NCBI GenBank assembly: GCA_001784175.1
Contig: MFPR01000041.1
Coordinates: forward strand, 1-64,000
Length of the DNA stretch: 64,000 nt
Origin: Candidatus Lindowbacteria bacterium RIFCSPLOWO2_12_FULL_62_27
GTDB taxonomy: Bacteria; Lindowbacteria; 2-12-FULL-62-27
Direction: 5' to 3'
The position numbers and the translations under genes are program-made. Position 1 is the first letter of the stretch; every line of letters starts with the position of its first letter. This document shows positions 17,040 through 26,252 of the stretch, piece after piece. The notes under the pieces are model-generated. The model was given only the letters and a program-made list of their open reading frames with translations, searched no databases and had not been told where the DNA came from.

Positions 17040-18083
17040 TCAAGAAATTTTTGCGGCCGGCGCCGGCGCCGGCTTTGTCTTGGAATCGGACAGCGGCTGA
17101 ACGAGAGAATCCCTTAGGCCTTCGTCCCACAACCGCCGGATCCGGGCCAGATCCTCCTGCGAGAGGGCCGGGAGGTCGGCGGCGGCGCAGAACTCACGGA
17201 TCTGTTCGGAGGACGTAAAATTCGGCAGAACGGTCTTGACGCTCGGCTGGGCCAGGCAGAACTGGATGGCGGCCTGGGAGAGGCGTCGGCCAGCTTCGAG
17301 AAACTCCAGTATCTGAATCGCCGCGATCCCGGCGGCCATCCATTTTTCCTTGCGGTGGCTCCGGTGATCCGATTTCGAAAAATGTTTTTCGGGCGAGTAG
17401 CTCCGGTCGAGAAGCCCGGAGGCATGGGGCACGCGGACGATCAGGCTCTTGTTCTGCTGTTCGGCGGCCGGAAAAAATCCGGAGGAGGGGTCCTGTTCCA
17501 GGAGGCTGTAAATGATTTGAATGGCGTCGATCCCTTCACGATGGAGCGATTCCATGCCCTCGTCAAACCAGCCGATGTCCGGGCCGAGGGCGACACCGCC
17601 GATCCGGATTTTTCCCTGCGCCTTCAACTGATCCAGCGCCTCCAGAACCTCGTCGCTCCGGAGGGCGTCCATGCGTGGATTATGGAGCTGGTAGATGTCG
17701 ATATAGTCGGCGCCCAGCCGGCGCAGGCTCTCCTCGCAGGCGCGGCGGATGAAGGGCGCGGAAAAATCCTGCGGCAATTCGCTGTGCCCGCCGCGCTCCC
17801 CGGCGTGGGTGTAAATGTCGTAGCCGAACTTTGTGGCGATGACGAGCCGGTCGCGCGGCACGCCGCTTTTCCAGAACGCGTCGGCCAGCATCGTCTCGCC
17901 TAAACCGTTCCCGTAGACGTCGGCGGTGTCATAAAACGTGACGCCCGCGTCCAGGGCTTCCCGCAAAAGCCGGATTCCGGTCTGCGCGTCTTTGACGCCC
18001 CACCAGGTCGTGGCAACCGACCATACGCCAAATCCGATTTCCGAAACGGCCGTGCGACCGTCACTCAAAAATCGATACCGCAT
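17040..18083 (-). CDS. Aldo/keto reductase
   Basis: VSEIGFG.W, YDTADVYG.G, IATKFG, SLRRLGADYIDIYQLHNP, QIIYSLLEQ. Confidence 0.92.
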   Translation of the reverse strand: MRYRFLSDGRTAVSEIGFGVWSVATTWWGVKDAQTGIRLLREALDAGVTFYDTADVYGNGLGETMLADAFWKSGVPRDRLVIATKFGYDIYTHAGERGGHSELPQDFSAPFIRRACEESLRRLGADYIDIYQLHNPRMDALRSDEVLEALDQLKAQGKIRIGGVALGPDIGWFDEGMESLHREGIDAIQIIYSLLEQDPSSGFFPAAEQQNKSLIVRVPHASGLLDRSYSPEKHFSKSDHRSHRKEKWMAAGIAAIQILEFLEAGRRLSQAAIQFCLAQPSVKTVLPNFTSSEQIREFCAAADLPALSQEDLARIRRLWDEGLRDSLVQPLSDSKTKPAPAPAAKIS

Positions 18084-18089
18084 AAAATC

Positions 18090-18118
18090 AGTGTATCCTT
18101 AACGGAGTCTTGCGGCAA
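18090..18118 (-). promoter_or_regulatory. Putative sigma70 promoter TTGCCG-N17-TACACT, ending 6 nt before the aldo/keto reductase ATG (leaderless)
   Basis: Consensus match with 17-bp spacer; no Shine-Dalgarno. Confidence 0.6.
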
Positions 18119-19640
18119 GTGATTCCACCTGCGCGCAGGCAGTTTCCAGAGATTCCTCGGCTGCCTCGACAGGTTCGATGCCGCGTTTTTTGGCGTGTTT
18201 GGCCCACAGAGCGTCGAGGAGGCGCCGGACGGACCGAGGGGGTTGGTACGTCAGGAGGTGCCATCCGGCGGACAGAATCGCGATCGCGAGGATGGCGGTG
18301 ACCGCCGGGAGGATGAATTCGACCGGCAGGAAGAAGTCCGGGTCGAGGGCGACGATCAGAAGGGCCAGCGCGGTGAAGCCTGCGTACAGCAGGCCCCGCC
18401 AAAAATGCCCGGGGGAGGACGGCCGCAGCGCCGCCAGGCGGCTCAATGCCAGATCGACGCGGACGTCGCGTTCGACGGCGCGGATCTGTTTGAGGCGATC
18501 CGCCGCTTTGTCACAGGCCTCCGTCCAGTTTCGGACGAGGGCGTCGAACTCCTGTCCCGAGGAGAACCACGAGCCCTGGGTTGAGAGAATGCTTCCGACG
18601 GCTGCCATTTCCATCACCATTTTCTGGAGCGTTTCCAGATGGCCGGGCCGGCCGGCGGCCGGGAGTGAATCCTTGACTTTTCCGGCGCATTCATACGAAG
18701 CAATGCTCAACGCTCGTGAGACGCCGCCGGCCAGACGGTCCCGGCATTCACTCGAAAGCCGCGCGGCTTCCTGAAGACAGGCCCTCGCCGTCACCGTCCG
18801 GTTCCGGTCTTGGTGGTCCAGCGGCCGGTCCCATCGGACGGCGATGGGAAGCAGCGCGAGCGGCAGGTCCATTTCCGTGCACTGCGTTCTCAGGCAGGCG
18901 ACTCCCTTCAAGTACCACGCCTCGGCGTTGCGGCTGTCCAGGTTGAGAATCCGGTCGCACTTATCGATCGCGGCCGCCGGATCATTCCCGCGGAGGTCCA
19001 CCCGGGCGCGGTTCAGAAGCGAGGCGGCCAGAAGCGCGGCGTCCTGCGGATCGGACGAGAGGGCCGTGTCCGGCAAATTGATTTCGAGCGGATACGAAGC
19101 CGCGATTTGCTCGAGTGTCTGCCTGAGGGTTTTCACGCAGTGAACCTTGATGCGCGCCATGTGGATCTCCGATTCGCCGCCGTCGCCCGGGATGACCAGC
19201 TCGGAAAACGCGCCGGCCGACGGCGCGTTCAGGAATTGGAGCTTCAGTTTCATGCCGTCGCGGTCAATCGGCAGCACCCGCCCGTCCTGGGCGAGATCGC
19301 CGGTGCAAAGGACGTGGCCGAGCGGAATCTGGCAATAATAGGACGCCATGGCCAGCGCGGCCGCCAGCGTCAGCGACCGGCCTTCAATGTAGACGTTCGA
19401 TTTTGTCGTGACGCGTTGCCAATCGATAGCGTAGAAACCGCTGCGGGTGGGCAGGGGGGTTTGGAGGACCGCGGCCAGCGCGGCCCGGGCGTCATTGAAG
19501 GCGGCCATGCACGAGTCGCTCCAGGCCGTGGTTTCTCTCGCGCCCGGATCGAAACGCAGGTAAATGATATCGCCCTTATGGGTCTCCTCGTTCACCACCA
19601 GGACGCCCAGGATCCCGTGTTGTCCCGCGACTCCGCTCAT
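18099..19640 (-). CDS. Lon-type (S16) Ser-Lys protease domain + TPR + two TM helices; no AAA+ domain
   Basis: IEGRSLTLAAALA (Ser89) ... CTGDL..DGRVLPI...MKLK (Lys131/133) matches Lon dyad spacing. TPR AAAIDKCDRILNLDSRNAEAWYLKGVA. C-terminal hydrophobic hairpin. Shine-Dalgarno GAGGAGG upstream. Confidence 0.72.
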   Translation of the reverse strand: MSGVAGQHGILGVLVVNEETHKGDIIYLRFDPGARETTAWSDSCMAAFNDARAALAAVLQTPLPTRSGFYAIDWQRVTTKSNVYIEGRSLTLAAALAMASYYCQIPLGHVLCTGDLAQDGRVLPIDRDGMKLKLQFLNAPSAGAFSELVIPGDGGESEIHMARIKVHCVKTLRQTLEQIAASYPLEINLPDTALSSDPQDAALLAASLLNRARVDLRGNDPAAAIDKCDRILNLDSRNAEAWYLKGVACLRTQCTEMDLPLALLPIAVRWDRPLDHQDRNRTVTARACLQEAARLSSECRDRLAGGVSRALSIASYECAGKVKDSLPAAGRPGHLETLQKMVMEMAAVGSILSTQGSWFSSGQEFDALVRNWTEACDKAADRLKQIRAVERDVRVDLALSRLAALRPSSPGHFWRGLLYAGFTALALLIVALDPDFFLPVEFILPAVTAILAIAILSAGWHLLTYQPPRSVRRLLDALWAKHAKKRGIEPVEAAEESLETACAQVESLAARLR

Positions 19641-20784
19641 GGGCCCACCTCCTCAAAGACGGTGTGCCGAACCGGTCAATGGCACTGCGTATATTGTCCC
19701 AAGCCGGATGGTCGCTGTCGAGCCGCACGACATGTTTGAATTCCTCTTCAAGAATGACTCTGAGGATCGGGTCCCGTTCCACCGAAATCGCATTGAGGAG
19801 TTCCCCGACGCCGACGCCGGCGCGGTCGAACTGGTCGGCCATGTCGCAAAAGGCGTCGATCTCGGCCGTCGATGCAGTCCCGGGCACCGGATAAAAATCG
19901 ACTGCGACGCGGCGGGCGCCCCTCTCGAAGATGCCCTGAAATTGATGCGCGTTCTGGATGTCTGTTTCAAAGCGCCAGAGGAGAATACTCCCGTGTTGCG
20001 TCGCCTCGGCGGGGATTACATGAGACCGATCGTCATAAAACACAGCTCGCACCGGCTCCTCTTCCGACCAGGCGCCGATCGCCAGAGACCCGTCCAGATA
20101 TTCAATGGTGGCGATCCTCAATCCCTTGTCGACTTCCATCGCCCGATATCCCGCAATCCGCCCGGCCGACGTGTCCAGGGTTTTTGCGGCAAGAATCAGC
20201 ATCTGGGGATCCGCCGTCGAAGACCGGCGGACGGGCGCAACCGGAAAGGCGATCCCCTTGTCCTCGAGGTGAACCCGAATGAGATTACGGTCGTCGGCCC
20301 GGCGCACCCGGCGCTCGTCGTTCTCCTTCAACATCGACGGCCCGATCCGGTGGGGAGGCACGCGGCCGGCGTAGACGGCCTCACGGCCCTGCCGATCGAG
20401 ACACACGATCTCGTCCATCAACGCGCCGGACAATTCGAAAACGAAAACCCCCAGCCGCGTCCGGCTCAGGGAGAATTTTGCCCACAGTTGAACGGCGAAA
20501 TCCGCGCCGAGTCCTGTTTCCGCCGCGCCGACGCAGAAATCATCCGAGGCGGCGGCGGAGAGATCAAATGAAAGCGGCGCCGCGACCGCATCGACGCCCG
20601 CATCGTTGCCGCCACGCGTCTCCAGCAGGATCACATGAAGGGGCGGCAGGTCAAAGACCAGGTGCGCGGGCTTTTGAAGGCGCCAAATCTGCCCGGCGGC
20701 CGGCTGCGGTTGGAAAGGCGATGGAGCATTCGCCGGGCGTTGGCCGCGGATTCGATTGAACCAATCATGATGGATGCCGGTCAT
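19576..20784 (-). CDS. Hypothetical protein with N-terminal GQIWRL motif (PemK/MazF-like fold suspected); candidate anti-sigma factor or protease target
   Basis: Strong Shine-Dalgarno (AAGAGGAGG) 19 bp after the sigma gene. AGQIWRL...VILLE...VAAPLS pattern. Function inferred only from context. Confidence 0.55.
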   Translation of the reverse strand: MTGIHHDWFNRIRGQRPANAPSPFQPQPAAGQIWRLQKPAHLVFDLPPLHVILLETRGGNDAGVDAVAAPLSFDLSAAASDDFCVGAAETGLGADFAVQLWAKFSLSRTRLGVFVFELSGALMDEIVCLDRQGREAVYAGRVPPHRIGPSMLKENDERRVRRADDRNLIRVHLEDKGIAFPVAPVRRSSTADPQMLILAAKTLDTSAGRIAGYRAMEVDKGLRIATIEYLDGSLAIGAWSEEEPVRAVFYDDRSHVIPAEATQHGSILLWRFETDIQNAHQFQGIFERGARRVAVDFYPVPGTASTAEIDAFCDMADQFDRAGVGVGELLNAISVERDPILRVILEEEFKHVVRLDSDHPAWDNIRSAIDRFGTPSLRRWAHERSRGTTRDPGRPGGERGDP

Positions 20785-20802
20785 GGCCGCCTCCTCTTTT
20801 TT

Positions 20803-21810
20803 CTACCTATTAGTTTCAAACGGATACTTCCCGGTGTTTTCCAATTCCACCGTGCAAATTCGGGCGAGGCGGCCGATGACCTGCTCGATCTCCCCAAGGG
20901 AGGAATTCGGCGGATGGGCGGCCCGGACGCTGATCGCGATGTGGGTCAGAACGTTCTGGGCGGATGTCGGCGATGACCATCCGGCTCGCCTTGCGATTTC
21001 GGCCAATCCAACGCCGGCGGATCGGAGGGCGAGGACCGCCCTTTCCGTCGGGGTCAGATTCTTTGCGATCTGCTCGGCCATGAGTTTTGATTCGACGTCC
21101 ATGTCCGGCAAAGCGGCCGGGTCCGTTTCCGGACTCCGCCCTCCCTCCGCGCCGGGGGCGTCGGCGCTCACGATCTTCAGGCGCGCCAGGGGCATGCACC
21201 ATTTTAGAATATGAATGACATCCCGGACGGCGAGATGGAGCGGCCCGAACGTGAGGAAGAGGTCCGACAGCCAGACCGTCAGGTCCCGCCGGTCGGGAAG
21301 GTATTCGCCGCGCCTGAGAGGGGACCGGGAGGCCGTTTCGAGCGAAATTTCTTCGAGGCGCAGATCGCCCGGATGTTCCGGCGGCGTCTCCCGCCATTTC
21401 TCATGCGTGAACATATCCGCCGCGCCCGAGCCGGCGGGCCCGCGCGCGGATCGGACGAACGGCGCGTCCGAAAGGATCTTCACCAGAATCTTGAACAATT
21501 TGTATTCCTCCTCCGACCGGCGCCGATCGATCAGAATCTGGTGGACGACGGTCTTCAGAAGGCTGACGAGCAGCCGCCCGGGCGAAGGGCTGCCGGCGAT
21601 TTCGACGTGTCCGCGCGTAAAGACCCGCTCGAGCGCCTCGGCGGTGAGATCTTCAAACTCGATCCCCTGGTAATACTCTGTCGGATATTTCCGCATGACC
21701 AATCCGCGAACGCGCTCCTGGACGATTTCCCAGAAACGCCGTTCTTCTTCCGGGGTTGCTTTTCCCTGGAAACAGCGCTCAAAGAGGGAGTCCAACGGTC
21801 CGGTCTCCAT
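20803..21810 (-). CDS. Divergent ECF-like sigma70 factor with long insertion between regions 2 and 4
   Basis: Region-2-like RFWEIVQERVRGLV...FEDLTAEALERV...LKTVVHQILIDRRR. Region-4 HTH LTPTERAVLALRSAGVGLAEIARRAGWSSPTSAQN. Start placed at ATG 21810. Confidence 0.7.
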   Translation of the reverse strand: METGPLDSLFERCFQGKATPEEERRFWEIVQERVRGLVMRKYPTEYYQGIEFEDLTAEALERVFTRGHVEIAGSPSPGRLLVSLLKTVVHQILIDRRRSEEEYKLFKILVKILSDAPFVRSARGPAGSGAADMFTHEKWRETPPEHPGDLRLEEISLETASRSPLRRGEYLPDRRDLTVWLSDLFLTFGPLHLAVRDVIHILKWCMPLARLKIVSADAPGAEGGRSPETDPAALPDMDVESKLMAEQIAKNLTPTERAVLALRSAGVGLAEIARRAGWSSPTSAQNVLTHIAISVRAAHPPNSSLGEIEQVIGRLARICTVELENTGKYPFETNR

Positions 21811-21816
21811 GCGAGC

Positions 21817-21846
21817 ACGGTAACTGGCGGAACGAGGCTTTCGCAA
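21817..21846 (-). promoter_or_regulatory. Putative sigma70 promoter TTGCGA-N18-TACCGT, ending 6 nt before the sigma-factor ATG
   Basis: TAnnnT -10 at the same distance from the ATG as in other genes in this window. Confidence 0.45.
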
Positions 21847-21985
21847 TCCCAAGTCATTTCAGCCGCTTGGAGGAATTCGACGGCCGGCGGACTGCAAAAT
21901 GCGGCCAACCCTGCGTTCAAGTTGGGTGAAGGGGCCGTAGTGAGGCCGAAGTTCTTTGGCAATGGAATTAAAGGAGGCAGGGGCG

Positions 21986-22171
21986 GTGAAAACACGCGGG
22001 TTGAACGCATGCCGGGGGCAGGGAATGGTGGAGTATCTGCTGGTTCTCGCGGTAGTGATCGGAACCACCGTCGCAGCCATGAGCGCCATCTCCGAATCGG
22101 CTTCCACGGTCATCCGCGCGCTGGTCACCCACATTCAACAGGTGACCGGCGTCGAAGCCCCGGCGAATTAG
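21986..22171 (+). CDS. flp: Flp family type IVb pilin 1
   Basis: RGQGMVEYLLVLAVVIG (G|xxxxEY prepilin motif). AAGGAGG Shine-Dalgarno before GTG 21986. Confidence 0.85.
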   Translation: MKTRGLNACRGQGMVEYLLVLAVVIGTTVAAMSAISESASTVIRALVTHIQQVTGVEAPAN

Positions 22172-22207
22172 ACGGCCCGAGGCGCCTGTGGAAAGGAGGA
22201 CTGTGGA

Positions 22208-22390
22208 ATGAACGCGAACAAGCAGATTTTGGAGAAAGGCCAGGGATTGGTGGAGTACCTGCTGATCGTCGCGGTGGTGGTGGCCCTCGTGGTCGCCGCC
22301 GGCAAGGTGTACTTCGACTCGACGAGCGGCGCGACGACCACCATCACGGGAAAAATCAGCAGCTCGGCGGCGAATCCGGTCGGCCCTTGA
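22208..22390 (+). CDS. flp: Flp family type IVb pilin 2
   Basis: KGQGLVEYLLIVAVVVALVV; AAAGGAGG Shine-Dalgarno. Confidence 0.88.
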   Translation: MNANKQILEKGQGLVEYLLIVAVVVALVVAAGKVYFDSTSGATTTITGKISSSAANPVGP

Positions 22391-22477: not shown

Positions 22478-22933
22478 ATGGATGTGATTCACATGATGAT
22501 TCGAAACACAATTCCATCTTCTCGCCGCCCTCCGCAGCAGGGCCAGGCATTGGCGGAGACCATGCTGATGGTGCCGTTCTTCATCCTCCTCATGATGCTC
22601 CTGGCCGAATTCGGCGTCTACTTCTACAGGAGCAATCTTCTGGAGGACACGGCCCAGCAGGTGGCCCGGATGGCGGCCCGGAACGCGACGCTGTCCGATA
22701 TCCAGAATTATTCGAATGAAAAATTGTATACCCTGCAGCCGCAACTGGCGGTCCTGAACGCGCTGAATGAGCCCGTCGATGCGTGGTCGTCCGACCAGAC
22801 GCTTCAAATCAAACTCACCGCGACGGTCCAGCCGGTCATGCCGATCTCGGCATTGAACATATTTTCGCCCGGGACCGATTTCTTTCCGGCGGCGTTTACG
22901 CTCGAATCCAAGAAACAGGTTTACGTGGAGTGA
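22478..22933 (+). CDS. tadE: TadE-family pseudopilin
   Basis: QQGQALAETMLMVPFFILLM...EFG.YFY...L..TA...ARMAA. Start may be a few codons downstream. Confidence 0.85.
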   Translation: MDVIHMMIRNTIPSSRRPPQQGQALAETMLMVPFFILLMMLLAEFGVYFYRSNLLEDTAQQVARMAARNATLSDIQNYSNEKLYTLQPQLAVLNALNEPVDAWSSDQTLQIKLTATVQPVMPISALNIFSPGTDFFPAAFTLESKKQVYVE

Positions 22934-22938
22934 GGGGC

Positions 22939-23817
22939 ATGCGGCGCCATTACAAGCCGAACGGTGCGCAGGGCAGCATGCTGCTTTCATTTCTCCTGAG
23001 TATGGGCGCCGTCACTGTCGTCTTCGGGTCCATCATCGAGTCCTCGCTCCTCCTGCACGCCCGAACCCGCATGTTCAATGACGCGCAAAACGCGGTCGTG
23101 GCGGCCGCCGATCTCTATTTTTCCGGAGTCGAGGATCCGGAAACACTCCAGGCGGCGGTCCGGGATCAGTATTGCGTGACGACGTTTCTGGATGCCGGCG
23201 CGACCCGCCTCGATTTCAGCCGGATCGCCGACCACCTCCTGATCCTCCACTCGGCAAAACCGGTCCCCTTTCTGTTCCTGCCGGATAGGGTGGTTCTGAA
23301 CGTTTCCATGGCGGCGGTGATTCCCCAGGTCGTCTATGGCCTGAGCGGCCTCGTGCCCTTCGCGGTCGTGGCGCCGGAGGGTGGGTTCGTGTACGGCGAG
23401 CTCTACACGCTCAAATTCGGCGGAGGTGACGGCCAAACCGGAAATTATGGCGCCCTCGCGCTGGATGGCAGTGGCGCCTCGAACTATCTCGATAAATTGG
23501 AGTTCGGGTATGACCAGGTCGTCCGCGTCGGGGACGTCCTGACCACGGAACCGGGAAACATGAAAGGCCCGACGGATGAGGGGATTTCCTATCGCCTGGA
23601 TCAGGGGAACGACGTCATCTTCGTGGTCGTGACAGATCAGCTTCCCAACGGCCGGGGCGAGATCGTCGTCCGGGGATTCGCGGCATTTCGCGTCCAGTCG
23701 GCCACCGCCCGGGGCGACGTGACCGGAGACTTCATCGAGTACCGGACCTCCGGGGAGGCCGGGCCGGGCGCGAACGATTACGGGCTCTACACGCGGTCCC
23801 GACTGGTGTTCTTTTAG
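22939..23817 (+). CDS. tadG: TadG-like pilus assembly protein
   Basis: QGSMLL + TM + ...RTRMFNDAQNAVVAAA; C-terminal GNYGALALDGSGA...TEPGNM.GP domain typical of Tad-associated proteins. Confidence 0.7.
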   Translation: MRRHYKPNGAQGSMLLSFLLSMGAVTVVFGSIIESSLLLHARTRMFNDAQNAVVAAADLYFSGVEDPETLQAAVRDQYCVTTFLDAGATRLDFSRIADHLLILHSAKPVPFLFLPDRVVLNVSMAAVIPQVVYGLSGLVPFAVVAPEGGFVYGELYTLKFGGGDGQTGNYGALALDGSGASNYLDKLEFGYDQVVRVGDVLTTEPGNMKGPTDEGISYRLDQGNDVIFVVVTDQLPNGRGEIVVRGFAAFRVQSATARGDVTGDFIEYRTSGEAGPGANDYGLYTRSRLVFF

Positions 23818-23818
23818 C

Positions 23819-25045
23819 ATGACCGCGCTCCTCTTCCTCCTGGCGTGGGCCGCCGCCGGATACGGCGAGATGTCCCAGATCAAAGTCGCCGTCGGGGAAT
23901 TCAAGACGGTCACCGCGGCCGACCGGATCGTCCGGATCGCCGTCGCGGCGCCGGACATCGCCGACTACACCGTCATCTCCAAGCGGGAGGTGCTGATCAA
24001 CGGCAAGTCGATCGGGCGGACCAGCATGAAAGTCTGGACGCCCGACGACCAGGTCACGTATCTCGTCGATGTCATCGATCTCAAGCAGGCCAGGCTGGAA
24101 AGCGTGATCGACAACCCGTCGCTGGTCGAAAAAATTCGAAAGGTCATCGGCCATCCGGACGTCCAGGTGACCAGCGCCGGCCGCGGCGTCATTTTGAGCG
24201 GAAGCGTCGGGACGGAGGCAGAGAAGCAGAGTACGGAGAAAATCCTCCGGGCCTTCCTGCCCGACCCGGACCAGGACGTCACCAACATCCTGGAAGTTCG
24301 AAGGAAACCCCGCCAGGTCCGGATGAAGGTCCGGATCATGGAGATCTCCGAAAACGCGGGCAAATCCCAGGGCATCGACTGGGGTAGTTTCAGAAACTCG
24401 GCGGACCCGACCGTGTTTCGCGACCGGGACCTGCACGATCAGTATTCGCTGACCGGCGCGTTTGCTTCGGGCCTGCCGCCCCGGGTGGCGCTGCCGTTCA
24501 AAAAGAGCCGTGCCTTTTCGATGGTCGATCCCTTCATGATGCAGATCAACTTCCTGATCGACAGCGGCGTCATCCGGATCCTGTCCGAGCCCGAAATCGT
24601 GGCGCTGTCGGGCGCCCGGTCCGACGTTCTGATCGGCGGCCAGGTTCCCGTCCCGCTGATGACATCGACGCAGATTTCCGTCAGTTGGAAGGACTACGGG
24701 ATCAAGATGTCGCTGGAGCCCAATATCGACATCGACAGCCAGGTGACCGCGAAGATCTATACGGAGGTCAGTACCCTCGACTATACCAATGCCGTGACCG
24801 TCTCCGGATTCTCCATTCCGGCCCTGAAGGTCACCCAGGCCACGAGCGAGATCCAGGTGAAACCCGGCCAGACGATCTTCTTAAGCGGTCTCAAACGCGA
24901 AATCAACACCAAATCCGAAAAGGGGTTCCCGGGTCTGTCAGGAATCCCGGTCGTGGGGAATGCCTTCGGGACCCGGAACAAAAAAACGGACAAGGTGGAG
25001 CTGGTCATCAGCGTCACGCCGTATATCGTCGATGAGGTCCCCTGA
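23819..25045 (+). CDS. cpaC: Tad secretin RcpA/CpaC
   Basis: RIAVAAPDIADY.V...EVLINGK..GRT, a BON-like segment, QV.MKVRIME, LSEPEIVALSG....LIGGQVPVP, WKDYGIK, PGLSGIPVVG..F, ELVISVTP. Confidence 0.92.
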   Translation: MTALLFLLAWAAAGYGEMSQIKVAVGEFKTVTAADRIVRIAVAAPDIADYTVISKREVLINGKSIGRTSMKVWTPDDQVTYLVDVIDLKQARLESVIDNPSLVEKIRKVIGHPDVQVTSAGRGVILSGSVGTEAEKQSTEKILRAFLPDPDQDVTNILEVRRKPRQVRMKVRIMEISENAGKSQGIDWGSFRNSADPTVFRDRDLHDQYSLTGAFASGLPPRVALPFKKSRAFSMVDPFMMQINFLIDSGVIRILSEPEIVALSGARSDVLIGGQVPVPLMTSTQISVSWKDYGIKMSLEPNIDIDSQVTAKIYTEVSTLDYTNAVTVSGFSIPALKVTQATSEIQVKPGQTIFLSGLKREINTKSEKGFPGLSGIPVVGNAFGTRNKKTDKVELVISVTPYIVDEVP

Positions 25046-25046
25046 C

Positions 25047-26252
25047 ATGACGGACAAACATACGGTTCTCTTCATCGGGCGCGGTCAGACGTACGACGAC
25101 TTGAAATTGTATCTCCAAAATTTGAAAGAGATCGAACTGCATCACGAGGACGTGGCGGCGGTGGAGGAAATGAAAAACGGCCATTCGGATATCCTGATGA
25201 TCGAATACGCCAAAAACCACGAGAACACGTGCGGCCTTCTCGAGGAACTCTGCGCGCGGTATCCCGACTGCATTCTGCTGCTCATGGCGCCTCAGAAACC
25301 GGGACCGGAGCAATTGATGCAGTACATGAAATGTGGCGTCCGCGACATCGTCACCCCGGACGACAATCTGGAGGCGTTTCTGCAAAAGGCCGTCGCGCTG
25401 ATCCACCGGCGGTCGGAGGCGGGCCGGCCCGGCGCCGGCCGGCTCGGCCGGGTCCTGTGTTTTTTCAGCTCGAAAGGCGGCGTCGGGAAGACGTTTCTGG
25501 CGGTGTCCGCCGGTCGTGTGCTGGGCCAAAGCCCCGAGCGCCGGACCGTTCTGGTGGACTTCGATCTTCAGTTCGGCGACATGGACCTTTACCTGGACGC
25601 GAACAGTCCCAGGACGATCGGAGAATTGTTCGAGGAGGTCCGGAACAACGGCGACCGGCTGTCCGATTTTATTTTGGACAGCCACGTCCATCCGGTCACG
25701 CCCACCTTGCACCTTCTGTCCGCGCCGCTGTCGCCGGAAAAGGCGGAATCTATTCAGAGCGGGTCGGTCGTCCAGTTGATCAAGGCATTGAAGAAACGGT
25801 ATGACTTCGTCGTCCTCGACGCCGGCGGCGTCCTGAACGACATCGCCCTGGCGGCCTTCGACAAGGCGGACCGCATATTTCTCGTGGTCAACGGCGAGAT
25901 CGCGTCCATCAAAAACGCCGGGCAGACCTTTCAACTGCTGAAAAAACTGAATTATGACGAAACCAGGATCGACTTTGTCGTCAATGCGGTTTCGGAAACA
26001 TTTCCGCTGGACGAGGGAACGTTGATGAAGATCCTGACGCGCAAGCCCGTCGCGCGGATCCCGGCGTCGGCGCGCGTCCGGGAGTCGATCAACCAGGGGT
26101 ACAACCTCGTCCTGAAAAAGCCGGAGGACCCGGCCGTCCGGGGCATTCGGGAATTCTGCGGAAAAATCGCCGCGGATTTCAACGTCCGGCTGGATCTCCG
26201 GGACCGGCCGTCCGGATTTTGGGGCCGGCTCTTCAAGGCCGGAGCGGCCTGA
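25047..26252 (+). CDS. cpaE: CpaE/TadZ (receiver-like domain + MinD/ParA ATPase)
   Basis: Deviant Walker A SSKGGVGKT, LVDFDLQFGD, YDFVVLD. Confidence 0.9.
   Translation: MTDKHTVLFIGRGQTYDDLKLYLQNLKEIELHHEDVAAVEEMKNGHSDILMIEYAKNHENTCGLLEELCARYPDCILLLMAPQKPGPEQLMQYMKCGVRDIVTPDDNLEAFLQKAVALIHRRSEAGRPGAGRLGRVLCFFSSKGGVGKTFLAVSAGRVLGQSPERRTVLVDFDLQFGDMDLYLDANSPRTIGELFEEVRNNGDRLSDFILDSHVHPVTPTLHLLSAPLSPEKAESIQSGSVVQLIKALKKRYDFVVLDAGGVLNDIALAAFDKADRIFLVVNGEIASIKNAGQTFQLLKKLNYDETRIDFVVNAVSETFPLDEGTLMKILTRKPVARIPASARVRESINQGYNLVLKKPEDPAVRGIREFCGKIAADFNVRLDLRDRPSGFWGRLFKAGAA

Follow-up and report, generated by a model that had tools for sequence, protein, structure and literature searches.

The window analysed here, the first 64,000 nucleotides of contig MFPR01000041.1 of Candidatus Lindowbacteria bacterium RIFCSPLOWO2_12_FULL_62_27, carries on its minus strand three adjoining genes that encode a sigma-like protein, a protein with a MazF fold and a Lon-type protease. 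A first-pass annotation made from the window alone had read them as a CRISPR-free counterpart of the CalpL/CalpT/CalpS cascade. In two reports, that cascade is described as part of type III CRISPR-Cas and as comprising a SAVED-Lon protease (CalpL), a MazF-like anti-sigma (CalpT) and an extracytoplasmic function (ECF)-like sigma (CalpS) (10.1101/2024.05.08.593097; 10.1101/2023.06.23.546230). The proposal of a shared effector logic is supported by the comparisons described below, and those of its vulnerable points that could be tested held. The three genes are as follows.

20803..21852, minus strand: gene 1, sigma-like protein; open reading frame (ORF) of 349 residues from TTG 21852, probably 335 residues from ATG 21810
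19576..20784, minus strand: gene 2, MazF-fold protein, candidate anti-sigma adaptor and protease substrate; ORF of 402 residues
18099..19640, minus strand: gene 3, ATPase-less Lon-type protease with a helical/TPR-like region and a membrane hairpin; ORF of 513 residues

All three are co-oriented and as tightly linked as originally described, with a gap of 18 nucleotides between genes 1 and 2, an overlap of 65 nucleotides between genes 2 and 3, and strong AGGAGG-type ribosome-binding sites ahead of genes 2 and 3. The 335-residue version of the gene 1 protein, beginning at ATG 21810, agrees with the start in a database record. Because homologues of all three keep the same order in other genomes, the triad consists of real genes and not of chance ORFs. 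A promoter and terminator scan of positions 17900-22300 gave nothing usable, with one promoter-like site against 0.7 expected and seven terminator-like sites against 4.7 expected.

A MazF-fold protein between the sigma-like protein and the protease

20365..20712, minus strand: MazF/PemK-fold core, residues ~25-140 (hhalign, AlphaFold2 (AF2), Foldseek, VIA)
20179..20193, minus strand: LAAKT motif, candidate cleavage/degron site in the putative interdomain linker, residues 198-202
19624..20163, minus strand: C-terminal half, a beta-sandwich followed by a helical bundle, residues 208-387; AF2 predicted local distance difference test (pLDDT) ~60-90

The first-pass annotation had singled out the middle gene for a GQIWRL motif near the N-terminus of its 402-residue product (residues 31-36), in which it saw a resemblance to PemK/MazF. 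Scans with this protein matched no Pfam, NCBIfam or PADLOC family (Pfam at E<=1), a profile of it returned no rows against PDB sequences, and a word-based homologue search found a single relative. An HMMER search of 1.84 billion representatives with a five-sequence profile retrieved 264 proteins (E<=0.001); about 8 of these match over the full length, and the others share the N-terminal 140-150 residues. The shared domain contains the GQIW motif (residues 31-34 of the gene 2 protein) and continues into a conserved helical extension that reaches approximately residue 175. Its near-invariant positions are G31, Q32, W34, D82, W101, L111, G148, D156 and R158.

When a 95-sequence alignment of this domain was compared by hhalign with 30 PemK sequences taken from genomes, the two matched with a probability of 97.0% (E 1e-10) over 102 columns, which correspond to the whole PemK domain. 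An AF2 model of residues 1-200 built on this 95-sequence alignment reaches a pLDDT of 83.6 and a predicted template modelling score (pTM) of 0.78. In a Foldseek search with this model, MazF toxins ranked on top (best E 5.1e-6; 60 matches at E<=0.001), and VIA aligned it to MazF-mt1 (6kyt_E) over 109 residues (Z 12.3, root-mean-square deviation 3.5), its top 50 entries being MazF or CcdB throughout. Since profile comparison, structure prediction and fold search agree, the N-terminal domain can be assigned to the MazF/PemK fold, and the suspected resemblance is borne out.

Relatives of the MazF-like domain differ in what is attached to it. A zf-HC2 zinc finger of the anti-sigma type sits at the N-terminus in 16 of 95 relatives, and such a finger occurs as well in the MazF-like proteins of locus L103 (Pfam 23.1 bits, cut-off 22.2) and, by eye, of genome G097 (G, C and L mark genomes, contigs and loci); a Pfam scan found none in the gene 2 protein. 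Three of the 95 have an HTH_3 domain and one a PemK match (E 0.0033). Among ten relatives that were scanned, one is fused to TPR-CHAT (P0053, CHAT E 1.7e-40) and another, weakly, to Peptidase_M78.

In the full-length AF2 model of the gene 2 protein, which used a five-sequence alignment, the N-terminal half reached a pLDDT of only ~30 and was therefore remodelled as residues 1-200. A wide VIA search with this full model returned only generic Ig-like and carbohydrate-binding module (CBM) matches over residues 210-300, with Z up to 8.9. The two halves are joined by a linker predicted with low confidence: residues 185-191 have a pLDDT below 50, and residues 193-199, which overlap the LAAKT motif, form a short helix with a pLDDT of ~58. 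All five Lon-linked members of the lineage have an [LM]AA[KQT]T motif behind the MazF-like domain, and a similar P-LAA stretch can be seen by eye in an alignment of ten distant relatives. LAAKT is a candidate cut site of the gene 2 protein.

An ATPase-less Lon protease with a membrane hairpin

19086..19640, minus strand: Lon (S16) proteolytic domain, residues 1-185 (family profile against PDB)
19374..19376, minus strand: TCG codon of Ser89, candidate catalytic serine (HMMER alignment to the LonB/Lon serine)
19242..19244, minus strand: AAG codon of Lys133, candidate catalytic lysine (aligned with the lysine of the LonB E-K-I/L motif)
18885..19025, minus strand: weak TPR-like stretch, residues 206-252 (Pfam TPR_16 E 0.0064, TPR_2 E 0.011, below cut-offs)
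18246..18401, minus strand: two hydrophobic helices forming a membrane hairpin, residues ~414-433 and 437-465 (Kyte-Doolittle windows >1.6)
18102-18245, minus strand: conserved basic C-terminal tail, residues 466-513 (LWAKHAKKRGIE)

A seven-sequence profile of the protease family searched against PDB found the protease domain of LonB from M. jannaschii first (1xhk, E 9.9e-9) and several dozen Lon entries after it; scans with the single gene 3 sequence were faint (LonB E 0.073; PADLOC CRISPR-Lon E 0.037). Ser89 is invariant in all seven aligned family members, and HMMER alignments place it in register with the serine of the GDSAT/GPSAG motif of LonB and Lon. Of the two lysines offered as its partner by the first-pass annotation, Lys131 is not the conserved one; Lys133 aligns with its LonB counterpart, and a lysine followed by Leu or Ile occupies this position in eight of eight Lon-like domains (by eye). 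Judged from these alignments, Ser89 and Lys133 are a candidate Lon catalytic dyad.

The domain is also free of an AAA+ module, as had been claimed: it begins at residue 1 of the protein, and Pfam, NCBIfam and PADLOC scans matched no AAA family. Nor was a SAVED family found in the 513 residues at E<=1 (Pfam, PADLOC). The gene 3 protein thus resembles LonB-type domains (1xhk, 1z0e, 8dvh) in its S16 fold signature and in the matching positions of Ser and Lys, and differs from Lon and LonB in the missing AAA+ module, in a family serine motif G-R-S(-L) instead of G-D/P-S-A, and in its fusion to a TPR-like region and a hairpin.

The first-pass annotation had replaced the nucleotide sensor of the cascade by TPR repeats and two transmembrane helices. 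The two hydrophobic helices are there, and the TPR signal is weak, with precomputed TPR families on two of four close protease relatives. The helices are connected by a nine-residue acidic loop, DPDFFLPVE, and have basic flanks, which by the positive-inside rule would leave both ends of the hairpin in the cytoplasm. The membrane part is a hairpin anchor and not a periplasmic domain, and the protease is therefore essentially without a periplasmic sensor. A membrane hairpin thus stands, with almost nothing outside the cell, and a sensor role of the TPR and membrane parts is a guess.

Close relatives of the protein number four among 5.8 billion clustered proteins (word-based search). A tail motif, LW-x-K-H/Y-x-K/R-K-R-G-I/F-E, is common to the gene 3 protein and the proteases of two further lineage genomes, G003 and, in a decayed copy, G001.

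A sigma region 4 at the C-terminus of the first protein

20908..21099, minus strand: sigma region-4-like helix-turn-helix, residues ~252-315 of the 349-residue form (hhalign)

Gene 1 had been described as encoding a divergent ECF-like sigma factor, a claim that stands for region 4 and is backed by sub-threshold matches only for region 2. In an hhalign comparison of the five-sequence gene 1 family with 27 ECF sigmas, residues 238-301 of the 335-residue form aligned with ECF positions 148-211 at a probability of 93.1% (E 3.3e-7). By itself the protein falls below the Pfam and NCBIfam sigma cut-offs in single-sequence scans. Its match to NCBIfam sigma70-ECF (TIGR02937; E 4.8e-6, 26.3 bits, cut-off 42.9) is stretched across residues 37-300, so the protein would have a long insert.

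A word-based homologue search with gene 1 found two proteins, and a profile of its family returned three chance-level rows against PDB sequences. More informative are the genes next to distant MazF-like genes, from whose neighbourhoods come homologues at loci L104, L103 and L097. By BLASTP the sigma-like gene of L104 is the best match (E 1e-11, 27% identity, 327 residues), followed by L103 and L097. The L104 protein passes Pfam Sigma70_r4 (31.2 bits, cut-off 24.1), the L103 protein passes Sigma70_r4_2 (27.1 bits, cut-off 25.7), and the L097 protein lies slightly below the Pfam sigma-4 cut-off (23.4 against 24.1 bits).

For region 2 the leads are an hhalign match of the N-terminal part to ECF region 2 at E 0.058, ESM Atlas clusters in which 19-27% of the members carry Sigma70_r2 (score 0.90), and an ESM Atlas model of the SigL family with a TM score of 0.52 across 95 residues. 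Sequence comparison therefore points to a sigma region 4 at the C-terminus of the gene 1 protein, with region 2 merely hinted at.

Distribution and modular relatives

Protease homologues were found in 4 of 41 genomes searched, namely in all four members of the small family (f1) of the source genome, G000; further relatives are of the 'same domain' rank only. The module is present in all four genomes of this lineage, with extra copies in G000, and a GQIW-domain profile extended the search to 401 genomes, of which 6 were positive (the four family members, G097 and G135). The triad thus co-occurs elsewhere, both within the lineage and in unrelated genomes in which the protease carries other domains.

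Within the lineage, the order sigma-like, MazF-like, Lon-like recurs in G002 and G003; the Lon protein of G002 is short, and a separate membrane ORF comes after it. A second full module in G000 lies on contig C30 (L013 3669-8894) and has two Lon-like genes, one of them encoding Lon only and the other Lon with a membrane helix and a C-terminal domain of no assigned family. On C30 a short sigma region-4-like frame (C30:161351-161557, L054; TIGR02937 105-165, E 1e-4) precedes the sigma-like gene by about 100 bp. On contig C84 of G001 the MazF-like and Lon domains are fused in a single protein of 519 residues, with a DEAD-box helicase gene after it. G001 also has, on contig C76 (L011 6585-8833), a frameshifted and internally deleted protease copy that keeps the Lon domain and the C-terminal tail and has lost the TPR and membrane parts. 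Neither a sigma-like nor a MazF-like gene accompanies this remnant; it is flanked by a PemK-like gene (E 2e-8) and a RES/Xre-like pair (by eye). The 401-genome search added two copies in G000, on contigs C28 (L099 5867-9610) and C35 (L100 5745-9413), in which a MazF-like domain fused to long TPR arrays follows a sigma-like gene and no protease adjoins, bringing the sigma-like/MazF-like pairs of this genome to four. The upstream proteins of G003, G000:C30 and G001:C84 make up a second, more divergent sigma-like sub-family.

Outside the lineage the third gene takes on new domains. On contig C53 of G097, a 'same domain' relative from another small phylum (two of the four genomes in that phylum have a GQIW domain), a sigma-like gene and a MazF-like gene with a zinc-finger-like part precede a protein of 1535 residues that combines an N-terminal Lon-like domain (Lon_C E 0.033) with a STAND NTPase (NPHP3_N E 3.3e-9). 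A narrower search with a 10-sequence alignment returned two loci, L103 and L104. The third gene of L103 encodes a fusion of Peptidase_M78, UvrD helicase and PD-(D/E)XK nuclease; that of L104 encodes Lon_C (24.2 bits, cut-off 21.1) fused to RNase HII/HIII. The L104 cassette is preceded by a PemK-like gene and followed by a TPR/cold-shock gene. The former (L104 5490-5933, plus strand) encodes 147 residues (PemK_toxin 22.2 bits, cut-off 23.1) and overlaps the start of the sigma-like gene, so that the operon comprises four or five genes, two of them encoding MazF-fold proteins.

In all, 12 GQIW loci were examined: the window, G000:C30, C28, C35, G001:C84, G002:C92, G003:C133, G097:C53, G401:C209, G135:C49, L103 and L104. 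A sigma-like gene lies directly upstream at 10 of them (at C28 and C35 on weak matches only), and a protease domain is next door or fused at 8, seven times Lon-like and once Peptidase_M78; the G401 stretch is too short to judge, and G135 has a different context. Protease and sensor domains swap among relatives of the module.

The G135 locus (C49; L098 3979-7513) encodes a protein of 155 residues with a partial GQIW-type domain that ends in a Gly-Gly leader-like LEDVAGG. Its gene lies among other small genes that share this motif, a cluster that by eye recalls Nif11/NHLP-type peptide precursors. FHIPEP (FlhA-type) C-terminal domains are found repeatedly in proteins encoded alongside the modules. 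At L100 3062-5626 (minus strand) FHIPEP (Pfam E 1.7e-48) is fused to a ClpX-like AAA+ ATPase (AAA_2 E 1.4e-16), and further FHIPEP proteins were recognized by eye at L100 145-2943, L013 11227-12441 and L014 1207-3147.

Neighbouring genes

Downstream of the triad, on the same strand, lies an aldo/keto-reductase-like gene. Divergent from gene 1, on the plus strand, are two small Flp-pilin-like genes (21956-22171 and 22208-22390) and a tad-type pilus operon (22478-26252). In G003, flp and tadE-like genes are found downstream of the module on the same strand (L010 4969-5984, minus strand). These identities were all assigned by eye.

Likeness to known systems

The triad has the same three folds as CalpL/T/S: a Lon-type Ser-Lys protease without AAA+, a MazF-fold middle protein and an ECF-like protein bearing sigma region 4. 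According to the bioRxiv report (10.1101/2024.05.08.593097), the Lon-type dyad of CalpL is S152/K193 or S154/K195, and its substrate is the MazF-like/DUF2080 protein CalpT. The CalpT named CCaCalpT is described there as being cut within an alanine-rich LAAA stretch, which exposes an LAA degron, whereupon cellular proteases remove the fragment that holds CalpS; neither CCaCalpT nor its fragments were toxic in E. coli. In the gene 2 protein, too, an alanine-rich LAA motif is found in the linker that follows the MazF-like domain.

The differences are as clear. Unlike CalpL, the gene 3 protein lacks a SAVED domain as sensor of cyclic tetra-adenylate (cA4) and has a TPR-like region and membrane hairpin instead, and its similarity to the PADLOC CRISPR-Lon model is negligible (E 0.037). 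Unlike CalpT, the gene 2 protein has no DUF2080 at Pfam E<=1 and has a beta-sandwich and a helical bundle, for which a distant likeness is still possible. The order of the triad, sigma, MazF-like, protease, also differs from that of the cascade. There are no cas genes beside the triad. The first-pass annotation had extended this statement to the window, which as a whole was not scanned for them; the genome has two Cas1 matches, on contigs C6 and C4, and none on C41, the contig of the triad. No Cmr2 match was found in the genome (Csm1 was not searched for). As SAVED, DUF2080 and a CRISPR linkage are all missing, the triad is not a member of CalpL/T/S.

An ECF-like match near the Cas1 gene of C6 was considered and set aside: a methyltransferase and a HerA-like gene lie there, and none of the 10 ORFs scanned is Calp-like. 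That region (L101 6922-13457), a few kb from a Cas1 frame of 581 residues, looks like a defence island in which a type II methyltransferase and a HerA-like ATPase are encoded.

A second point of comparison is Craspase of type III-E, in which, according to the same two reports, the TPR-CHAT protease Csx29 cleaves Csx30 and frees CASP-sigma (10.1101/2024.05.08.593097; 10.1101/2023.06.23.546230). Common to both would be a TPR-repeat protease that cuts an inhibitor to free a sigma, and the MazF-like relative P0053 is itself fused to TPR-CHAT. Unlike the Lon-type protease of the triad, Craspase is described as a CHAT cysteine protease activated by a gRAMP-RNA complex.

With the MazF/PemK toxins (PF02452), the gene 2 protein shares the fold across the whole PemK domain. 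Unlike them it lacks the catalytic arginine, is three times longer, has no MazE-like partner and adds a helical extension (G.PI....DPR..FQ) and a C-terminal half of two domains. In classical pairs of ECF sigma and zinc anti-sigma (ZAS, zf-HC2), for example those with RseA or RsiV, the sigma is held and then freed by regulated proteolysis. The proposed holding and proteolytic release of the sigma-like protein, and the zf-HC2 finger in 16 of 95 gene 2 relatives, recall such pairs; unlike them, the triad has a soluble MazF-fold protein without zf-HC2 and an operon-encoded Lon-type enzyme in place of site-1/site-2 membrane proteases. In the literature, supplements and subscription papers lying outside the coverage, searches found no description of CRISPR-free Lon/MazF-like/sigma cassettes, only of CalpL/T/S, SAVED-CHAT and Craspase.

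A probable proteolytic switch without CRISPR

The reading preferred here, with a probability of roughly 0.55, is that the triad constitutes a protease-gated sigma/anti-sigma-like transcription switch that works like CalpL/T/S. Speaking for it are the three assigned folds or domains, the conserved Ser and Lys, the gene order kept elsewhere, the MazF-like/Lon fusion of G001:C84, the varied sensor domains on related proteases, the zf-HC2 finger of 16 of 95 relatives and the linker motif. At rest, the MazF-fold protein would keep the sigma-like protein inactive, as CalpT does CalpS. A signal sensed through the protease's helical/TPR-like region, or through its place at the membrane, would activate the Ser89-Lys133 protease, which would then cut the gene 2 protein in the flexible interdomain linker, with LAA|KT (residues 198-202) as the candidate site. 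A cut there would expose an ssrA-like LAA end, so that housekeeping proteases could complete the degradation. The sigma-like protein, once freed, would alter transcription of its targets.

Several observations weigh against this reading. The hhalign comparison that aligned region 4 (5 sequences against 27 ECF sigmas) gave no region 2 alignment. TIGR02937 matches just one of the five gene 1 family members, below its cut-off, and a six-frame search of the genome with this model (E<=0.01) did not list gene 1. Neither the second sigma-like sub-family (G003, C30, G001:C84) nor all eight upstream proteins taken jointly align significantly with ECF sigmas (hhalign probabilities of 3% and 21%). Because region 2 rests on sub-threshold matches, gene 1 could encode a sigma-4-type transcription factor instead of a true sigma.

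The binding of gene 1 and gene 2 proteins, which the first-pass annotation had named among the points to check, was predicted in a low score range: the complex has a median ipSAE of 0.44 (runs 0.42, 0.61 and 0.44; best of three controls 0.00), and a pass at or below 0.60 is more probably false than true unless the two partners were already likely to pair. In the calibration, 58 of 80 solved complexes passed, as did 2 of 110 mismatched pairs; 7 of the 80 solved complexes and both of these mismatches did so at or below 0.60. The runs share at least 28% of their contacts, with a partner pLDDT of at least 66. The model therefore lends weak support to a sigma-like/MazF-fold interaction.

On the side of the protease, the periplasmic loop has just nine residues and the TPR signal is sub-threshold; the TPR-like region and the membrane location are the sole candidates for what activates it. 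DUF2080, which serves CalpT for docking to its protease, is absent from the gene 2 protein, whose C-terminal half has only generic Ig-like matches. Since two of the four sigma-like/MazF-like pairs in G000 have no adjacent protease, a protease is not obligatory for the pair. Finally, the surroundings of the triad, with their aldo/keto-reductase-like and Flp/Tad genes (by eye), are not a defence island.

As to what the switch would be for, an alarm for stress or phage infection is the tentative choice, favoured over control of the pilus operon. In the latter explanation the same switch would have an ordinary role as housekeeping regulator of the adjoining Flp/Tad operon or of an envelope response, and no part in phage defence, which appears unlikely. 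It draws on the presence of Flp-like pilin and tad genes (by eye) next to the triad in two genera and in two arrangements, divergent in the window and downstream on the same strand in G003, on the membrane anchor of the protease, on the four paralogous sigma-like/MazF-like pairs of the genome, as in expanded signalling families, and on the want of an evident defence gene next to the window copy. Against these stand the conflict-type domains on the proteases of relatives (STAND NTPase, UvrD with PD-(D/E)XK, RNase HIII) and the PemK-like gene in one operon, the patchy distribution (6 of 401 genomes), and the decayed copy of G001 lying between toxin-antitoxin-like genes (by eye; PemK confirmed).

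Less probable still is toxin release, in which the MazF-fold domain would be an RNase effector, silenced within the full-length protein or by the sigma-like protein acting as helix-turn-helix antitoxin, and freed by the protease for abortive infection. MazF toxins rely on an arginine and a Ser/Thr for catalysis. In the wider family, 60 of 100 GQIW-family sequences have R at the position of this arginine, and at the Ser/Thr position 83 of them have S and 3 have T; the fold and profile match true MazF toxins, and a bona fide PemK gene (G002:C22) scores against the GQIW-domain profile at E 4.5e-7. The gene 2 protein keeps Ser72, whereas at the arginine position it has Pro-Pro-Leu (P48/L49), and only one of the five Lon-linked lineage members keeps the arginine (by eye). 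The near-invariant residues of the GQIW family, moreover, differ from the catalytic ones of MazF, and the domain has its extra conserved helical extension. Toxin release is also at odds with the account of CCaCalpT, which reports that the protein and its fragments are not toxic in E. coli (10.1101/2024.05.08.593097).

That the three genes are mere neighbours without a common mechanism, the Lon-like domain being for instance an inactive scaffold or a general membrane quality-control protease, is very improbable: the low ipSAE of the complex and the two paralogous pairs without a protease fit it, and it is contradicted by the gene order kept across unrelated genomes, the MazF-like/Lon fusion of G001:C84, the overlapping coding regions and the conserved Ser and Lys.

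Implications

In CalpL/T/S, the cutting of an anti-sigma converts a signal of infection into a transcriptional programme; the system is known only as a cA4-sensing CRISPR accessory. The triad and its relatives suggest that the combination of Lon-type protease, MazF-fold adaptor and sigma-like output is a portable cassette that has been wired to different inputs. The interest of the triad lies mainly in being part of a broader, unnamed class. Tentatively, the window copy may belong to a large and scattered class of protease-gated switches built on a MazF-fold 'GQIW domain' adaptor, with interchangeable proteases (Lon-type, M78, CHAT) and sensors (membrane/TPR, STAND NTPase, UvrD helicase-nuclease, RNase HIII), of which CalpL/T/S would be one branch and the membrane version beside Flp/Tad an alarm for attack on, or damage to, the envelope.

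If this is true, the known repertoire of bacterial protease-based signalling would be wider, and a widespread domain without a family name would gain a function. The triad would also provide a simple three-gene model, with one catalytic serine and a candidate cut site, for the activation of ATPase-less Lon domains, and a self-contained, CRISPR-free version could ease the search for targets of CalpS-type sigma-like proteins.

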